From: Escherichia coli
GTDB lineage: Bacteria; Pseudomonadota; Gammaproteobacteria; Enterobacterales; Enterobacteriaceae
Length of the DNA stretch: 64,000 nt
Direction: 5' to 3' (one strand)
NCBI RefSeq assembly: GCF_041886205.1
Contig: NZ_CP169029.1
Shown: piece by piece, positions 12,431-47,219 of the stretch
Position numbering within the stretch: position 1 is the stretch's first letter
Layout: the number at the start of each line of letters is the position of its first letter
Notes under the pieces: model-generated
Databases searched by the model: none
The model's input: the letters and a program-made list of their open reading frames with translations, nothing else
Told to the model about the DNA's origin: nothing
Made by a program: the position numbers and the translations under genes

Positions 12431-12823
12431 ATGAAATTTCAGGCCATTGTATTAGCAAGTTTTCTTGTCATGCCTTATGCGTTGGCAGATGACCAGGGCG
12501 GTTTAAAACAGGATGCAGCGCCACCGCCGCCTCATGCAATAGAAGATGGCTATCGCGGAACCGATGATGCAAAAAAAATGACCGTTGATTTCGCAAATAC
12601 CATGCACGATGGCGCTTCGGTTTCACTACGCGGTAATTTGATTTCTCACAAAGGAGAGGACCGTTACGTTTTTCGCGATAAGAGCGGTGAAATTAATGTC
12701 GTTATTCCTGCGGCCGTCTTTGATGGACGAGAAGTTCAGCCGGACCAGATGATCAACATTAGCGGCAGTCTGGATAAGAAAAGCGCGCCGGCCGTCGTTC
12801 GGGTCACTCATTTGCAGAAATAA
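12431..12823 (+). CDS. ydeI: YgiW/BOF-family periplasmic stress protein (130 aa)
   Basis: Signal peptide [19 protein letters not shown] then OB-fold family sequence; good RBS (AAGGAG). Confidence 0.85.
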
Positions 12824-30803: not shown

Positions 30804-32606
30804 TTATTTACTCCCGTCAGCGCGTTACCCCAATTGTAGATAAAACTGTTGACATCCTCCACGCCCTGAATGACGAGGATCCTGCTACGTTCAGGCTGTC
30901 GCCTGAATCATTTCGGTGGGTTCCTGCTTCAACGGGCGGCCTGACTGCACCATCCCTCCACAGGCAAGAACGGCGTGCCCCGCCGCTAAAATGTTACGAG
31001 CGCCATTTACATCGGCGTTCGCTGTATATCCACATACCTGGCATCTGAATTTACTTTGTGACAGGCGGTTCTCTTTCGCTGTATGACCACAGTACGCGCA
31101 ACGCTGGCTTGTATACGCTGGCGGAACAGCAAGCACCTGACCGCCACGCCAGAGCTGCTTGTACTCAAGCTGGCGGCGCATTTCATACCAGCCCTGATCC
31201 AGTATCGAACGGTTTAAACCTGATTTTGCCCGGACATTGCGCCCCGGCTGGCTGACCGTACCCGCTGCTGACTTTGACATGTTGCTGACCTTCAAATCCT
31301 CAATGACTATCATTGCGTGGTTTTTGCTGACGGTCGTTGTGACTTTGTGAAGGTAGTCCCTGCGGATATTTGCGATACGGGAATGCAGTCGCTGTATTTT
31401 GCGTTTCTGCTTCTGCCAGTTGTTGCTGAATTTGACCTTGCGGCTTAACTGTCGCTGAAGTCTCGCCAGCTTCTTCTGGTTTTTCTGAAAACTGTTTACA
31501 GGCTCAAAGACTGTACCATCTGACAGCGTGGCGAGTTTAGCCACGCCAGCATCCAGCCCGATCATTGATGCTGAAGGGTGAACCGGAGTTGATACTTCAC
31601 TTTCTGTCTGAATACTGATGTGCCACTTACCGCAGGACTGGCTGACCGTGACATTTTTCACAACACCCGTGACCTGACGGCTATTCCGGTAGCGCATCCA
31701 GCCCAGTTTCGGCAGAAAAATACGGCTGTTTTCCTGATCGAGCTTAACGCCCTGCGGGTAGCGGAATGCATCATTCTGTCCCCGCTTTTTGAATCGGGGA
31801 AAAGCAGCCCGCTTCTGGAAGAAGTTTTTGTAAGCCCGCTCAAGGTCTTTCAGTGACTGTTGCAATGGCTGTGACGGGGCATCTTTAAGCCATTGCGTTT
31901 CAGTGGCATTTTTCCACTCAACCAGCCAGGAAGCCATTTTCCCGTAAGGGATGTATTTATTACCGGCCTCATGATTCTCATTCTGACGTGCCAGAGCACG
32001 ATTGAAAACGAAACGACATGCGCCTGCGAAGCGCCTCATTTCACGCTCCTGTTGACCACCGGGTCTTAACTGGAATTTAAATGCCTGTAGTCGTTTCACA
32101 GGTCAAATTATATTTTGGTCTGTGAAAAAAGAAACCGATATCCGGCGTGGAAGGCATTGTGTTTTCCTGAAGCATGTTCACATGGTCTTTGTCACCAAAT
32201 ACCGACGCCAGATTTTTGACCATGACGCGACAGAAAAACTACGCACTTACTTTTCAAATGTATGTGCTGATTTTGAAGCTGAACTGGTTGAAATGGATGG
32301 CGAACCAGATCACGTCCATTTGTTAATTAACTATCCTCCCAAACTGGCGATATCCAGTCTGATAAACAGCCTCAAAAGCGTATCGGGTAGGTTACTGCGA
32401 CGAGATCGACCAGATATTGCAGTCAGGTATTACTACAAAGGCGTTTTGTGGAGTCCTGGCTATTTTGCCAGTAGCTGCGGAGGTGCGCCAATATCCGTCA
32501 TCCGCCAATACATTGAACAACAGCAAACACCTGGTCAGGTGGAAAACCGCGCCTTATATCCCCGCCCTGAAGGACGGGGTTTTACGGCGCACCGGATAAA
32601 TTCGCC
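30804..32606. mobile_element. IS200/IS605-family insertion sequence with divergent tnpB and tnpA between tam and lsrG; ends approximate
   Basis: Y1 HuH transposase gene and TnpB gene back to back (starts 22 bp apart), occupying the whole 1.8-kb interval between tam and lsrG; imperfect hairpins at both ends. Confidence 0.8.
30891..32099 (-). CDS. tnpB: TnpB (IS605 OrfB), RuvC-like RNA-guided nuclease, 402 aa, apparently intact
   Basis: RuvC-I (IGLDAGV), RuvC-II ([13 protein letters not shown]), zinc finger (CAYCGH...[18 protein letters not shown]) all present, no internal stops. Confidence 0.9.
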
Positions 32607-34855: not shown

Positions 34856-35848
34856 TTATGGCAATGGGTTATTGGCCCGACGCGCCAGCCACTCTTTAAT
34901 TTGCTGGCGATGCAGGCTAACGGAACGACCTACGACAACGACGATAAGTAGCGCACCGGAAAGGGCGCTGGACACCTGATTTGGCACTCCTGCCATTTGC
35001 AAACCTTGTTGCAAATATCCCACTAATAAAACCGCAATGGCGGTGCCGATAATGGAACCGGAACCACCATAAATATTGGCACCGCCAAGCACCACGGCGG
35101 TGATGGCGGGCATCAGAAACGACGCACCGAGATCGGAACGTGCTGAACCAAAATACGATACCAGCAGCACAGCGGCGACCGCAGACGCCAGCCCCGTCAT
35201 GGCATAGAGCGCACATAAGGTGCGGTTAACTGGAATCGCGCTATAAAGCGCCACGCGCGGGCTTTGCCCAATCAAAAACACATTACGTCCGGCATGGGTT
35301 TTATGCAGCCAGAGCCAGAAAACGAGGAGACATATCAGGAAGATAATCAGCGGAACGGGGAGCCCCAGCACATCCAGGTTAGCGAAATCTGTAAACGCCA
35401 TCGGGAATCCACCAATATCTTCGTACCCCGTCGCTCCGGCCATCCCGGAAAGCAGCAGGGCACTTCCGGCAAACAGATACAGCGTGCCAAGCGTAATCAC
35501 CAGCGGGTTAACTTTGGTATAGATAATTAATCCGGCGTTGATCAGCCCGCACAATACGCCGAGCAGTAAGGTCAGGAGTATCGCCAGCGGCATCGGCACA
35601 CCACTTTGAAACAGTACGCCCAATGCAATGGCGCAGAGGCCGATGGTCGAACCAAACGAAATATCGATCCCGCCACTGACAATCACCATCGTCAGCGGTA
35701 GGGCGACAATGCCAATGCAGATAAAGTCACTGGTGCTGAACAGCAACATATTGAGATCTAACATCCGCGGGTTAATTGCACCAAATGCGACAATCTCAAT
35801 AACGAGCAGTGCGGCAAGAGCCAGTTCCCAACCGTAGCGAATACGCAT
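34856..35848 (-). CDS. lsrD: AI-2 ABC transporter permease (330 aa)
   Basis: ABC-2 ribose-type permease ORF. Confidence 0.9.
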
Positions 35849-36876
35849 TATGCGGCCTCCCGTTTTTTACCTGACGAAGCGGGTTTAACGGATGGCGGTG
35901 GCGTCATAAAGCGGGCATATTTTTGCCGCCGCAGATTACGTTCCAGCGCACAACGCAGGCGTCCATCAAACACCAGCACCGCTAGCAGCACGAGGCCCGC
36001 GATAAAATCGTTCCACCATGCCGGAATGCGCAACAGCACCAGTACGCTATCGATCTGCGTCAGGAACCATGCGCCGAGTACCGCACCGATGATCGCACCG
36101 GAACCGCCGAGCAAACTAATGCCGCCCAGCACGCAGGCTGCAATTGCTTTCATCTCCAGCCCGGTACCGGTCTGGTTGGGGATAAAACCAATCTGCGAAG
36201 CAAACACAATCCCCGCCAGTGCCGCCATGCAGCCGTTCAACGAAAATGCCACAATGCGAATGGCTTCCGTACGAACGCCCAGTTGACGAGCTCCCTGTAA
36301 ATTATCGCCCGTGGCATAAAAACTGCGTCCAAACGCCGTCTTTGCCAGCAGCCAGGCCATAAATGCCACCAGAATTATCGTTAACTAACCAATTGCTGAA
36401 ACGCCAAGCAGCAGCGGGGCGGAGAGCTGTTTCAGTTCGGCGGGTAACCCCTCAATCCATTTACCGCCAGTCCACAGCAACATGATGCCTCTGTACAACC
36501 CTAACGAGCCAAGGGTGGCAACAATGGCAGGGATCTTTAGCCACGCGACCAGGACACCGTTGAAAAATCCCGCGAGCAAACCAAGCAGTAAAGTCGCGAC
36601 ACAGGCAACAGGTAGTGAATATCCTGCGTTCAGTAACATCCCCAACAGCACCGCGCACATTCCGGTAATCGAACCCACTGAAACATCAATATTGCGCGTA
36701 AGCATTACCAGCGTCGCGCCCATTGCCAGCAGGATCAGGATTTGCGCGCTGCTATAAACCATGGTCAGCGTTTGCACACTTAAATACTGGCGGTCGAGAA
36801 AACCGGGTAATACAAACAGCAGCACCACCGCCAGCAGTGCCGTGATTTCACGGTTGTTCTGAATAAACTTCAGCAT
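35848..36876 (-). pseudogene. lsrC: lsrC AI-2 ABC permease interrupted by an in-frame TAG stop (minus-strand codon at 36385-36387)
   Basis: Single reading frame carries the N-terminal 163 codons, then TAG, then continues in the same frame (...[17 protein letters not shown]...); the ORF track splits it into 36385..36876 and 35848..36369. Confidence 0.85.
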
Positions 36877-38395
36877 GACGCCTCCTGACGCTGACTATCG
36901 CCGAAGGCAACGCGCATAATAGTCTCGACATTAATATCGCGCCCGGTCAGTGCAGAGTGGGTAATTTCGCCCTGATGCATCACATACACACGATCTGCCA
37001 TCAGTTCGATCTCTTCCAGATCAGAGGAGATAAGCAGCACTGCCACATTCTGTGCGGCGATGCTGCGCAACAGCTGGTAGATATCATTACGGGCTGAGAC
37101 ATCCACGCCGCGCGTCGGCTCATCGACAATCAATGCTTGCGGCGAAGCTTCCAGGCATTTGGCAATGAGGATTTTTTGCTGGTTGCCACCGGATAATGTC
37201 CGTGCAGCTTGTTCCGGTTGGTTAAATTTAATATTCAGCGCCCGACGATATCGTTCCAGGGTGGCATTATCTTTCGCGGTTTTCGCCCAGAATCCACGAA
37301 GGTTATGAGTAAGGGCGCAGACGTTCCACGCCAGTGAAGCATCGAGATTCAGTCCGGATGACTGGCGATCTTCCGGCAGATAAACCAGACCGCGCAGTAA
37401 ACGTTCTCCGGTGGATAATCTATTGATCTCTTTACCATTCAGCATAATGCTTCCGCCACGCAAACTACGCAGACCATAGAGCGTCTCGGCCAGTTCTGTG
37501 CGTCCGGCTCCCACCAGCCCAGCCAGGCCCAGAATTTCTCCGGCATTGAGCGTCAGGCTGACATTCCTGAAACCTTCGCCAGTCAGATTTTCCAGTGTCA
37601 GCACCGACGTTCCGGCGGCATGTTGTGGGCGGTTACCAGGTAACTCCAGCCATAATTTTTGGCTGGCAGAGAGCGATTTTTCCCGTACCACTGGCGTGAT
37701 GGCCTGAATAATGTCGTCGGTAGACAGTTCGCTGGTTTTGCCGCTTAAGGCGATGGTTCCGTCGCGCATCACGCTAATTCGATCGGCAATCTGGCGAATT
37801 TCCGGCAGCTTATGCGAGATAAAAACAATACCCACGCCAGTAGCAAGCAGCTCTTGCAAGCGACTAAACAAGCGTTCGGTTTCCGCAGGGGTAAGCGAGG
37901 CGGTAGGTTCAGAATCCGCGAGTCGCGCATCAGCCCGCGGAGGATTTCCACCATTTGGCGATCGGCGACATCCAGCGATCCTGCCAGACTATGCAGATCA
38001 AACTGGCAGCCCAGCGCCGCCAGCAAGTTCTTCATTTTCTGCATGGAGAGCTGTTTTTTTGCCAGCCCAAACAGGATGTTTTCTTTTATCGACAGGCTTG
38101 GAAAAAGCAGCGGTTCCTGGGGAACGAGATAAATACCCAGCTGATGAGCATGAACTGGCGTTAATCTGGCGTAGTTGTTGCCCCCAATCTTCAGCGTACC
38201 GCTATCAGCAGGGGTAATACCGGCAATAATCTTCATTAACGTCGATTTACCGGCACCATTGCCGCCGAGCAGGGCGTGGACCTCCCCCTGATGCAACGTA
38301 AAATCGATGCCTTTCAGGACATTGACCCCTGAATACTGTTTATAAACCGAGCGGGCGCAAAGTAGCGGTAACGCGCGGGTATCACTCGTTTGCAT
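36870..38395 (-). pseudogene. lsrA: lsrA AI-2 ABC transporter ATPase disrupted by a frameshift near 37905-37915
   Basis: N-terminal ORF (37769..38395) has Walker [10 protein letters not shown] and runs ...RDSRIL then out of frame; the C-terminal ORF (36870..37871) continues the ABC ATPase in another frame; Walker B hhhhDE not encoded in frame. Confidence 0.85.
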
Positions 38396-41268: not shown

Positions 41269-41277
41269 TTTCATTGA

Positions 41278-41312
41278 CAGCCACATCATGATGACCGTGG
41301 CTGTTAGTTTTT
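41278..41312 (+). terminator. Rho-independent terminator after lsrK (CAGCCAC...GTGGCTG + TTAGTTTTT)
   Basis: 7-bp stem, T-rich tail. Confidence 0.55.
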
Positions 41313-41798
41313 GAGTATAGTTATTCTTATTTCCCTTCTTTTAGAACTGGCTTGTTAAATGCCAGCTTGCAGATTCATCCTTCCATCACCAGTAATATAT
41401 TCAAGGTGAAATTGCTATTTTTCTTAAAGCATTAAGCATAACCCTTATTTTATAGCGAATATTCCTAAAGACATTAATGGATGCAAAAGGGGTTTAATAA
41501 ACTTCGATTTTTAGCAATTAGTGCTATTCTTTGTTAAATATGATGATGGTAATTTTCCTATTAAAAGAAACAGTTTTCTTATTAAGCAACAATAACTCAT
41601 AGTTCATTTTTAAATAAAATAAGAACTATGCAATTTTTAATCTATCAATTCGAAAGCATTAGCAAATTAGCCAAATTGACACCTTCCCACCTCCAAATAA
41701 CACTCAATACAGACCTCTGACAATTTAATAAGTTTCATTTTTGATGTCTGGCGACTCATCTCTTTCGTGGCTGTATTGTTTGTATATGGAGCGTTTAT

Positions 41799-44700
41799 AT
41801 GAATAGAATCTATCGCGTGATATGGAATTGCACCCTACAGGTATTTCAGGTCTGCTCGGAATTAACTCGCAGGGTAGGTAAAAAATCGACGGTTAATTTG
41901 CGTAAATCCTCTGGACTGACAACGAAATTCAGTAGATTGACGCTGGGTGTTTTGCTGGCACTAAGCGGTTCAGCGTCTGGTGCGAGTCTGGAAGTTGATA
42001 ATGATCAGATTACCAATATTGATACTGATGTTGCTTATGATGCCTACCTGGTTGGCTGGTATGGCACTGGAGTGCTTAATATTTTGGCTGGCGGTAATGC
42101 CTCCTTAACCACGATTACTACCAGCGTCATTGGTGGTAATGAGAACTCGAAGGGCACCGTTAATGTTTTGGGTGGCACCTGGCGATTGTATGATAGCGGA
42201 AATAATGCAAGGCCTTTAAATGTGGGTCAATCCGGAACGGGGACGCTGAATATTAAACAGAAAGGTCACGTTGATGGAGGATATTTAAGGCTAGGTTCCT
42301 CGACAGGAGGCGTCGGGACGGTCAATGTTGAGGGAGAGGACTCTGTTCTGACGACCGAATTATTCGAAATAGGGAGCTATGGCACAGGCTCATTAAATAT
42401 TACAGATAAGGGTTACGTCACGAGTTCAATAGTCGCCATTTTAGGCTATCAGGCGGGCGGTAATGGCCAGGTTGTCGTGGAAAAGGGCGGCGAGTGGCTA
42501 ATAAAAAATAACGATTCCTCAATTGAATTTCAAATTGGTAATCAAGGAACGGGGGAAGCGACTATTCGCGGGGGTGGGCTGATTACGGCTGAAAACACGA
42601 TTATCGGTGGCAATGCCACCGGTATCGGAACCCTGAATGTGCAGGATCAAGACTCTGTCATCACGGTACGCAGACTCTATAATGGATATTTCGGCAATGG
42701 CACAGTCAATATTTCCAATAATGGACTGATTAATAACAAAGAATATTCATTGGTGGGCGTTCAGGACGGTTCCCACGGTGTCATCAACGTGACCGATAAA
42801 GGGCATTGGAATTTCCTCGGAACAGGCGAAGCTTTCCGCTATATCTATATCGGTGATGCTGGCGACGGTGAACTTAATGTCTCGAGTGAAGGCAAAGTAG
42901 ATTCGGGAATTATCACTGCGGGGATGAAAGAAACAGGCACAGGCAACATTACTGTTAAGGATAAGAACTCCGTTATCACTAATCTCGGAACTAATCTTGG
43001 TTATGACGGCCACGGCGAAATGAATATCAGTAATGAGGGGCTTGTTGTCAGCAACGGAGGAAGTTCACTCGGTTATGGAGAAACCGGCGTCGGGAATGTC
43101 AGCATCACCACGGGGGGGATGTGGGAGGTCAATAAGAATGTCTATACCACCATTGGTGTTGCGGGTGTCGGAAACCTCAATATTAGCGATGGCGGTAAGT
43201 TTGTATCGCAAAATATTACTTTTTTGGGCGATAAAGCAAGCGGTATCGGCACACTGAACCTGATGGATGCGACATCATCGTTCGATACTGTGGGTATCAA
43301 TGTCGGTAATTTTGGTAGCGGTATCGTAAATGTCAGTAATGGTGCCACCCTTAATTCAACGGGCTATGGATTTATCGGAGGAAATGCCTCCGGTAAGGGG
43401 ATAGTTAATATTTCAACGGATAGTCTCTGGAATTTAAAGACATCATCTACTAACGCCCAATTGCTACAGGTCGGTGTATTAGGCACGGGTAAACTGAATA
43501 TTACCACCGGAGGTATAGTTAAAGCGCGTGATACACAGATAGCTCTCAATGACAAAAGTAAGGGCGACGTGAGGGTGGATGGGCAGAACTCTCTGCTTGA
43601 AACATTCAATATGAACGTAGGGACGACTGGCACGGGTACGTTAACCCTGACGAATAACGGCACGCTGAATGTTGAGGGTGGCGAAGTTTACTTAGGTGTT
43701 TTTGAACCTGCTGTAGGAACGCTAAACATTGGTGCTGCTCACGGTGAGGCGGCGGCAGATGCCGGGTTTATCACCAACGCGACGAAAGTAGAGTTTGGTT
43801 CTGGCGAAGGTGTTTTTGTCTTTAATCATACCAATAACAGTGATACCGGCTACCAGGTCGATATGCTGATTACGGGTGACGATAAAGACGGAAAAGTGAT
43901 ACATGATGCAGGCCATACGGTGTTCAATGCAGGGAATACTTATAGCGGTAAAACGCTGGTCAATGACGGCCTCCTGACCATTGCGTCACATACGGCAGAT
44001 GGGGTAACGGGCATGGGTTCGAGTGAAGTAACCATTGCAAGCCCCGGTACGCTCGACATTCTCGCATCAACGAACAGTGCAGGAGATTACACGCTGACCA
44101 ATGCGCTCAAAGGCGATGGCTTGATGCGAGTTCAGCTGTCATCCTCCGACAAGATGTTTGGCTTTACCCATGCAACAGGGGCTGAATTCGCCGGTGTTGC
44201 CCAACTGAAAGACAGTACCTTCACTCTGGAACGCGACAACACCGCTGCGCTTACTCACGCGATGTTGCAGTCTGACATTGAAAATACCACATCGGTAAAC
44301 GTGGGAGAGCAATCCATTGGTGGACTGGCCATGAATGGCGGTACGCTCATTTTCGATACGGATATTCCTGCTGCGACGCTTGCAGAGGGATATATCAGCG
44401 TCGATACGCTGGTTGTCGGCGCGGGTGACTACACCTGGAAAGGCCGTAACTATCAGGTAAACGGGACGGGCGACGTGCTTATCGACGTGCCTAAACCGTG
44501 GAATGATCCCATGGCGAATAACCCTCTGACGACGCTCAATTTGCTGGAACACGATGATAGCCATGTCGGCGTTCAACTGGTGAAGGCGCAAACGGTTATT
44601 GGGTCGGGTGGTTCATTAACGTTACGTGATTTACAGGGCAACGAGGTGGAAGCGGACAAAACGTTACATATTGCGCAAAACGGAACGGTGGTCGCCGAGG

Positions 44701-47219: not shown

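Follow-up and report, generated by a model that had tools for sequence, protein, structure and literature searches.

The closest described counterpart of the gene treated here is ECSE_1600 of Escherichia coli SE11, which encodes a protein of 1806 amino acids (aa) and was reported in the 2008 genome paper of that strain, the source of the family name; besides SE11, HS was found to carry it intact, the copies of MG1655, E24377A, and O157 Sakai were disrupted, and the B2 strains CFT073, UTI89, and 536 had none (PMC2608844). In K-12, the counterpart is yneO (b4696, formerly ydeK b1510 and ydeU b1509), a pseudogene in MG1655, and full-text literature searches under the names YneO, YdeK, YdeU, and ECSE_1600 turned up no functional study of the protein. 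Further points of comparison are (i) AIDA-I, Ag43, and TibA, and (ii) autotransporters of Bordetella pertussis and Neisseria with poly-G/C runs (PMC1891110, PMC3960869), which resemble yneO in that a change of ±1 in an intragenic G run turns the product off. Here, we analyzed a 64-kb stretch of E. coli DNA (contig NZ_CP169029.1; "the window" below means this whole stretch), which carries an allele of this gene between lsrK and hipBA. The reading that we prefer, with a probability of roughly 80%, is that it is an intact yneO autotransporter, a type V secreted protein that is kept by purifying selection and whose on/off state is set largely by slips at G runs.

The window carries an intact allele of yneO

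The autotransporter gene begins with an ATG that follows a Shine-Dalgarno motif (GGAG, 8 nt 5' of the start) and continues for 1806 codons with zero internal stops in the six-frame list of open reading frames (ORFs). Its start and end agree with the RefSeq annotation of strain wlxctx60, whose genome is 100% identical to the window across the 6.6-kb autotransporter query region. The protein matched the NCBIfam model NF011422 ("ECSE_1600 family autotransporter") over residues 1 to 1806 of 1806, with 4151.9 bits against a cutoff of 2335, and every feature of that family that can be tested was found in its sequence. The gene order is lsrK, autotransporter, hipBA, with hipB and hipA annotated next downstream, and the position was the same across the E. 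coli genomes examined. K-12 yneO and SE11 ECSE_1600 are the same gene, sharing with the window both this locus and the full-length match to the family model. The window and K-12 alleles differ by 91 single-nucleotide polymorphisms (SNPs) across 5.4 kb, and K-12 has G8 at the poly-G run called T3 below, where the unsplit window allele has G7. These comparisons bear out the preliminary description of this DNA, made from its letters without database searches, which had claimed an uninterrupted 1806-aa gene directly upstream of hipBA and a pseudogene as its K-12 equivalent.

The gene is nevertheless less special than that description implied. A 6.6-kb query of the locus found matches in 5341 of 5426 complete E. 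coli genomes, among them 3885 near-full-length copies and a single copy 100% identical in DNA, that of strain wlxctx60. Sixteen genomes with a full-length match were then sampled across the spread of hits; by RefSeq annotation, 8 have the intact 1806-aa form and 8 are frameshifted. Within a collection of 15 billion proteins, the 90%-identity cluster of the window protein holds 18,868 member sequences, and its exact sequence lies on 44 contigs. In the B2 strain 536, tam directly adjoins hipB, and the autotransporter gene is missing along with the entire lsr operon. Judged by these comparisons, the gene is an intact allele of the known E. coli gene yneO, common in non-B2 E. coli and functionally uncharacterized, and the gene call itself is already known, having been described in 2008 and placed in a curated family. 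The label "lipoprotein YdeK" in UniProt and NCBI was considered and rejected: the protein has no L-[AS]-[GA]-C lipobox, its cysteines sit within the motif of the extended signal peptide region (ESPR), and the label appears to be an annotation artefact.

Frameshifts at poly-G runs

Three poly-G runs, T1, T2, and T3 (Table 1), lie in the gene, and the window allele is in frame at each of them; four of the nine G/C runs of at least 6 in the window fall inside this one gene. Alignment with K-12 showed a single extra G at T3 as the K-12 lesion, yielding the ORFs ydeK (1325 aa) and ydeU (466 aa). We genotyped the runs in the 5426 complete E. coli genomes with short queries that had to match exactly; these matched 4234 genomes for T2, 1796 for T3, and 4294 for a control A8 run in ydeI (12571-12578), with 3151 genomes classifiable at T2 and 528 at the control. 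At T2, G8 (in frame) was counted in 2369 genomes, G9 in 433, and G7 in 349, so that 782 of 3151 (24.8%) were out of frame. At T3, where G7 and G8 were counted, 1332 genomes had G7 (in frame) and 384 had G8 (+1), the latter mostly K-12 laboratory derivatives. The control run read A8 in 527 genomes, A9 in none, and A7 in 1 (~0.2% variants), which places homopolymer assembly error in the collection about a hundred-fold below the variation at T2.

Among the eight frameshifted alleles in the sample, T2 was struck in six: +1 in A35, LCP22S3_I2, 2022S01-140, and UTAK-12, and −1 in ST130 and N196, the last of which additionally has T1+1. The W619 lesion is a +1 in a GGGG at 45842, and that of O157:H7 is an 8-bp insertion at 45782; with K-12 included, a G run was involved in eight of the nine characterized frameshift alleles. 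The truncated products were found on contigs from NCBI, ENA, and Logan assemblies. Four exact products each occur on at least 1000 contigs, namely, K-12 YdeK (T3+1, 1325 aa), T2 G9 in a K-12-like background (1289 aa), T2 G9 of the O103 type (1285 aa), and the O157:H7 form (1343 aa). The N196 type (T1+1, 445 aa) occurs on 417 contigs, the W619 type (1354 aa) on 293, the A35 type (1289 aa) on 82, and the ST130 type (1302 aa) on 9. G9 at T2 is also carried by O26:H11 strain 11368, a Sanger-era sequence.

Different states of the frame sit on near-identical alleles. No SNP separates K-12 (T3+1) from 2022S01-140 (T2+1) over the 5.4 kb, and the intact alleles of WS4437A-1 and PC6 lie only 2 to 4 SNPs from this pair; the intact/broken pairs LSN03/N196 and XJ55/ST130 differ by 2 and 3 SNPs, respectively. 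The slips, at least six events on alleles 0 to 5 SNPs apart, therefore arose independently. Among intact alleles, the ratio of nonsynonymous to synonymous substitution rates (dN/dS) was 0.10 to 0.13 against orthologues at 83 to 84% nucleotide identity and 0.12 to 0.18 within E. coli; by region, it was lowest in the barrel (0.05) and highest in the N-terminal passenger (0.16 to 0.20). Such low values indicate that intact alleles are under purifying selection and that the gene functions where it is kept. The on/off state across E. coli is set largely by changes of ±1 at the three G7-G8 runs, which act as slippage hot spots, K-12 being off through G7 to G8 at T3 and many other lineages through G8 to G9 or G7 at T2.

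As a separate observation, G7 at T2 is found in some assemblies of K-12 derivatives (ER1709, DTU-1, DH5alpha, and MG1655 CP009685), where the MG1655 reference has G8; apart from the G runs, ER1709 shows 0 SNPs relative to K-12. These calls reflect either slippage during laboratory propagation or long-read homopolymer error.

Upstream region and expression

The AT-rich upstream DNA noted in the preliminary description is a 530-bp spacer of 31.5% GC, compared with 49% across the whole window. In K-12, genomic SELEX (systematic evolution of ligands by exponential enrichment), an in vitro approach, placed a constitutive sigma70 promoter, CTGACA-17-TTTAAT, in this spacer, and the same promoter table has the entry "HNS" for it (PMC3946193). 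The promoter-like element of the window differs by an A-to-G change in the −10 hexamer (41740-41745), reading TTTGAT instead of TTTAAT. In enterotoxigenic E. coli (ETEC) H10407, a MarA site detected by chromatin immunoprecipitation sequencing, gcactaattgctaaa, was attributed to yneO (ETEC1580) and ranked in the class of strongest binding (PMC5684230). From the exact match in the window (Table 1), MarA would be expected to bind at 41510-41524 in the window strain as well; the box lies ~200 bp upstream of the promoter-like element, a distance that suggests an additional promoter or long-range action. The marRAB locus itself is ~24 kb away in a collinear strain.

Transcription would probably start from the weak sigma70 promoter in the AT-rich spacer. 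H-NS binding there has literature support in K-12, silencing by H-NS is a candidate mechanism, and MarA is an additional candidate input; taken together, the H-NS-listed spacer of K-12 and the MarA site of ETEC suggest that expression is likely to be low in the absence of de-repression. Consensus promoter and terminator scans gave no more matches than shuffled sequence, and the terminator scan did not call the hairpin that we read by eye just past the stop codon (Table 1).

It is at this point that the alternative which survives best has to be weighed, namely, that the gene is cryptic, with an intact ORF silenced by H-NS, no phenotype, and frameshifts that are neutral decay, a possibility to be taken seriously even with the odds against it. 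The base composition of the spacer and its H-NS entry fit such a gene, as do the weak promoter hexamers, with a −10 that is worse in the window strain, the frameshifts in half of the sampled genomes, and the absence of the whole lsr and autotransporter block from B2 strains. Insertions are also tolerated: insertion sequences IS2 and IS3 interrupt the gene in some genomes (H4, H10), and three IS2 insertions in yneO were recorded during a long-term stationary-phase experiment (PMC7858067). However, the dN/dS of 0.10 to 0.18 indicates that selection keeps intact alleles, which requires expression somewhere, and a site bound by MarA in vivo in ETEC suggests conditional activation.

Mutational hot spot or reversible switch

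A further alternative, which we consider unlikely, is that yneO is a true contingency locus whose G runs are maintained for reversible on/off switching by slipped-strand mispairing, in the manner of Neisseria and Bordetella. It would account for three G7-G8 runs in a single gene that holds four of the nine long G/C runs of the window, for the gap between T2 and the control run in the frequency of variants, and for slips that recur on near-identical alleles while intact alleles stay under purifying selection. Shuffling of synonymous codons gave P = 0.027 for three or more runs of at least G7, which is also in its favor, but the enrichment is mild, and the idea of a strong statistical excess of G runs was dropped on this weak value. 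Nor are the runs anciently maintained tracts, since they are not conserved in the orthologues at 83 to 84% nucleotide identity (L003 and L004), where T2 reads GTGAGTGGTGAA, with G5 or G3 in place of T1 and no more than G6 at T3.

The fate of the broken alleles tells against a switch as well, because they gain second and third lesions instead of being restored: N196 combines T1+1 with T2−1, 2013C-4991 combines T1−1, T2−1, and T3+1, and UTAK-12 has 12-nt and 233-nt deletions besides T2+1. The combination of T2−1 with T3+1, present in ER1709, 14EC017, and 2013C-4991, was examined as a compensatory change that might restore the barrel frame and was ruled out by stops in the intervening frame at aa 1303 and 1314. 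Among the alleles characterized, no reversion from off to on was seen, and large lineages (O26/O103 type, K-12, and O157, on at least 1000 contigs each) have become clonally fixed for off alleles. In mismatch-repair-proficient E. coli, a G8 run is expected to slip at a rate far below that of classical phase-variable tracts, another point against a contingency locus.

In contrast to the Bordetella and Neisseria tracts, then, the yneO runs are short (G7-G8) and E. coli-specific, and their off alleles are fixed in clones and decay further. Since the runs are missing in orthologues and broken alleles gain lesions, a hot spot fits better than phase variation, and we favor repeated inactivation at mutational hot spots, for the most part in one direction, over a programmed switch. 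A literature search for poly-G phase variation in E. coli autotransporters turned up other genera only, and we found no description of the poly-G hot-spot pattern of yneO in the literature searched. The more specific idea of a bona fide contingency locus, a large surface adhesin preserved by purifying selection yet toggled at E. coli-specific runs, perhaps mainly in transient mutators, seems to us marginally less likely again. If the contingency reading were true, lineages would repeatedly lose and regain an adhesin under host immunity, phage, or niche, and yneO would be among the very few homopolymer-driven phase-variable genes of E. coli.

Domain architecture and predicted function

The protein has all the parts of a classical (type Va) autotransporter, as predicted from domain models and structure prediction: a signal peptide, a passenger with an autochaperone domain, and a barrel (Table 1). 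The ESPR and the complete barrel of the preliminary description were both recovered by hidden Markov models (PF13018 and PF03797), the barrel also by structural comparison. The signal peptide has a hydrophobic core at aa 46-56 followed by SGSASGA, and by eye the predicted cut falls near SGSASGA/SL. The N-terminal passenger consists of ~22 beta-helix rungs, each ~25 to 26 aa long and built on the motif G-x-G-x-[LV]-N-[IV], and its sequence resembles itself at periods of 26, 49, and 105 aa; AlphaFold2, from modest alignments, modeled aa 55-700 as all-beta with a predicted local distance difference test score (pLDDT) of 88.5 and a predicted template-modeling score (pTM) of 0.86. The following segment, aa 641-1331, has 33 to 48% identity to segments of giant repetitive autotransporters (2,000 to 7,700 aa) and contains PATR/TIGR02601 repeats at aa 1253-1283. 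The long repetitive beta-helical passenger claimed earlier stood at the protein level, with 11 TIGR04393 matches, and not at the DNA level, where tandem repeats were absent.

Toward the C terminus, the autochaperone region matches the IcsA autochaperone (3ML3/5KE1, E ~1e-17), and Pfam places a Pertactin domain at aa 1335-1452. The AlphaFold2 model of aa 640-1806, again from modest alignments, is all-beta (pLDDT 87.2); in it, twelve long strands come after a helix at aa 1483-1497. Foldseek matched it to the AIDA-I transport unit 4MEE with a template-modeling (TM) score of 0.95, a root-mean-square deviation of 2.2 Å, and 37% identity, the predicted linker helix aligning with that unit; the next matches were other autotransporter barrels and the C terminus of the IcsA passenger. 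No catalytic domain (protease, lipase, or other) in the autotransporter was matched by Pfam or NCBIfam.

From established type V secretion biology, the ESPR signal peptide would take the 1806-aa precursor across the inner membrane via Sec, the C-terminal 12-stranded barrel would be inserted by the beta-barrel assembly machinery (BAM), and the passenger would be threaded outward, C terminus first, folding on the autochaperone domain. The end product would be a right-handed beta-helix of ~1400 residues at the cell surface, which, by the resemblance of its modeled fold to Ag43 and TibA, would most likely act as an adhesin or cell-aggregation factor.

AIDA-I, the diffuse adherence adhesin of E. 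coli, resembles the window protein in the transport unit, its autochaperone, linker, and barrel being homologous (4MEE, E 5.9e-87). The AIDA-I family model NF033176, however, scores the window protein at 357 bits against a cutoff of 1200, and the match is confined to aa 1298-1805. The window protein also differs from AIDA-I and TibA in having no 19-aa repeats (TIGR04415, NCBIfam search) and no adjacent heptosyltransferase gene of the aah/tibC type, its neighbors being lsrK and hipB. Judged by sequence, it falls outside the AIDA-I or self-associating autotransporter (SAAT) group, although its transport unit is AIDA-like. In the alignment to AIDA-I, Asp1379 stands at the position of Asp878, Ile1398 at that of Glu897 (Asp1396 being two residues off), and Lys1347-Pro1348 at that of the scissile Ser846/Ala847 pair. 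The AIDA-I residues and the cleavage site are numbered as in Charbonneau et al. 2009. With Ile1398 and Lys1347-Pro1348 at the cleavage positions, AIDA-like self-cleavage appears doubtful, and the passenger may stay covalently attached.

The self-associating autotransporters Ag43 and TibA (PDB 7KOH, 4KH3, and 4Q1Q) share with the predicted window passenger the right-handed beta-helix of short repeated rungs and gave the best Foldseek matches of the N-terminal model to solved folds, but the match is weak (E ~2e-5, TM ~0.3, 13 to 15% identity), the rungs are ~25 to 26 aa (TIGR04393) rather than 19 aa, and the window passenger is about three times longer. Salmonella MisL and ShdA and E. coli YfaL/EhaC are related in the barrel and autochaperone regions (MisL 469 bits at aa 1480-1806, ShdA 220 bits, and YfaL 197 bits, all far under the family cutoffs), and their passengers are not orthologous to that of the window. 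A passenger with a non-adhesive function, such as a secreted protease or toxin, an esterase, or a serum-resistance factor, is improbable in our view: ~690 aa (aa 641-1331) are without a specific domain assignment and the model has unusually long strands at aa ~836-1054, which leaves room for it, whereas no catalytic family was matched, the structural neighbors are all beta-helical adhesin-type passengers or autotransporter barrels, and the homologues are giant repetitive autotransporters.

Table 1. Features of the yneO locus in the window, with coordinates counted from its first nucleotide
Feature	Coordinates	Strand	Basis or remarks
AT-rich spacer from lsrK to the autotransporter gene, regulatory region	41269..41798	+	530 bp
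MarA-box 15-mer GCACTAATTGCTAAA (predicted)	41510..41524	-	exact match to ETEC H10407 MarA site (PMC5684230)
Sigma70 promoter-like element CTGACA-17-TTTGAT	41717..41745	+	comparison with K-12
Coding sequence, ECSE_1600-family (YneO) classical autotransporter, intact	41799..47219	+	ORF list; NCBIfam NF011422
ESPR extended signal peptide, aa 1 to ~62	41799..41984	+	Pfam PF13018, aa 1-47, E 2.5e-14
N-terminal passenger, aa ~80-640	42036..43718	+	TIGR04393 x11, E 9e-63
Poly-G run T1, G7, codons 438-440	43112..43118	+	G8 in other strains (N196), giving a 445-aa truncated product
Second, less regular passenger segment, aa 641-1331	43719..45791	+	AlphaFold2 pLDDT mostly >80, all-beta
Poly-G run T2, G8, codons 1277-1279, main E. 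coli frameshift hot spot	45629..45636	+	exact-match counts
Poly-G run T3, G7, codons 1319-1321	45753..45759	+	G8 in K-12, giving the yneO pseudogene
Type 1 autochaperone domain, aa 1332-1438	45792..46112	+	Pfam PF18883 (AC_1), E 6.8e-26
Predicted alpha-helical linker filling the barrel pore, aa ~1483-1497	46245..46289	+	AlphaFold2 helix, model residues 844-858
12-stranded outer-membrane beta-barrel, aa ~1524-1806	46368..47216	+	Pfam PF03797, aa 1525-1784, E 9e-42
GC-rich hairpin AAGCCGCATG-N9-CATGCGGCTT, terminator-like, weak T tail	47227..47255	+	read by eye, 8 nt past the stop
hipBA promoter region, four HipB operators TATCC-N8-GGATA; neighboring unit, separate from the gene	47308..47420	+	pattern search

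Strength of the preferred reading

Several points weigh against an intact, selected autotransporter governed largely by G-run slips. The −10 hexamer of the window is weaker than that of K-12, and the gene may be silent in spite of its intact ORF. The control was a run of another base, A8 instead of G8, and some of the T2 G7 calls in K-12 laboratory derivatives could be long-read assembly errors. We infer surface display, adhesion, and aggregation from homology and fold, and the same holds for the adhesin or biofilm role and the expression in the window strain that the preliminary description had raised. The passenger match to Ag43 and TibA is weak, and the window protein carries neither the AIDA-type repeats nor a glycosyltransferase gene beside it. 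The least probable alternative, that the poly-G polymorphism is mostly a homopolymer sequencing or assembly artefact of long-read genomes, can draw on those K-12 assemblies and on slipped assemblies that have neighboring frameshifts (A35 in hipA and UTAK-12 in lsrK), but assembly error as the source was largely rejected in view of the single variant among 528 control genomes in the same collection, the G9 in the Sanger-era genome of O26:H11 11368, and the exact truncated products on 82 to at least 1000 contigs.

Other variation in the gene

The preliminary description had proposed the internal passenger repeats as sites of length variation, and this did not hold up. Tandem Repeats Finder detected no tandem DNA array within the autotransporter gene. 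Relatives of the protein form more than 100 mostly singleton clusters (P0003-P0120), each with one in-frame internal deletion of 92 to 363 aa; the 80 distinct deletions that were resolved are spread over aa 316-1495, and some of them remove the autochaperone domain. One deletion allele recurs, a 1589-aa form that lacks aa 953-1169 and is present on dozens of contigs. Across the 80 alleles, the longest direct repeat at the deletion junctions had a median of 4 nt, compared with 3 nt in random controls; with junction homology at this background level, the deletions do not appear to be repeat-mediated, and DNA-level repeats were rejected as the sites of length variation. The unstable sites are instead the three poly-G runs.

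Neighboring loci

Downstream, hipBA (47442-49030) is intact in the window, with four canonical operators. In wlxctx60 (L001 12509-18601), a TnAs1-type transposon that includes a gene for a chemotaxis receptor splits hipA; annotations give a frameshifted hipA in A35 and TW11681 and a truncated one in 536 and O157:H7. With lesions in several genomes, hipA is also often broken. Just past hipA, a 559-aa ORF (49233-50915, minus strand) is an internal fragment of an AIDA-I-like autotransporter: NF033176 scores it at 937 bits over model positions 654-1089 of 1287, it matches the heptosylation-target repeat TIGR04415, and a remnant of an IS3 transposase is fused at its N terminus. From its sequence, it looks like a second, decayed autotransporter beside the intact one.

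In the orthologues L003 and L004 (GCA_035726825.1 and SRR26334011), the protein is 85 to 86% identical and hipBA is still downstream, with a 52-aa Pmp3-family gene in between; upstream, a molybdenum oxidoreductase cluster stands in place of lsrK. Only the hipBA linkage is kept there, which suggests that the linkage of the autotransporter to hipBA is older than that to lsr. On the lsr side of the window, the autoinducer-2 (AI-2) uptake operon has lesions in lsrC and the lsrA region (35848-36876 and 36870-38395, both on the minus strand). The lsrC gene has an in-frame stop at codon 163, and lsrA is split into ORFs of 333 and 208 aa, "frameshifted" in the annotation of the 100%-identical strain; lsrR and lsrK are intact. 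The sequence suggests that the operon is inactivated in the window strain.

Farther away, an accessory block at 53676-61646 holds a LacI-family regulator, a LysR-family regulator, tcuABC (tricarballylate utilization), and an IS3-family transposase; at the corresponding position, K-12 has yneL together with the ydeT fimbrial genes instead. A 402-aa ORF at 30891-32099 (minus strand) lies where a collinear strain has an IS200/IS605 TnpB of the RNA-guided endonuclease family, which in that strain stands beside a truncated tnpA, between lsrG and tam.

Implications

The window strain carries an intact, in-frame allele of an 1806-aa protein that has gone unstudied because the K-12 copy is a pseudogene. 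The "presence" of this gene says little by itself, as in about a quarter of the genotypable complete genomes it is knocked out by a one-base slip at T2. The slip pattern is a cheap marker, and it raises the question of whether homopolymer instability in a surface protein is put to use by E. coli or is simply a burden to it.

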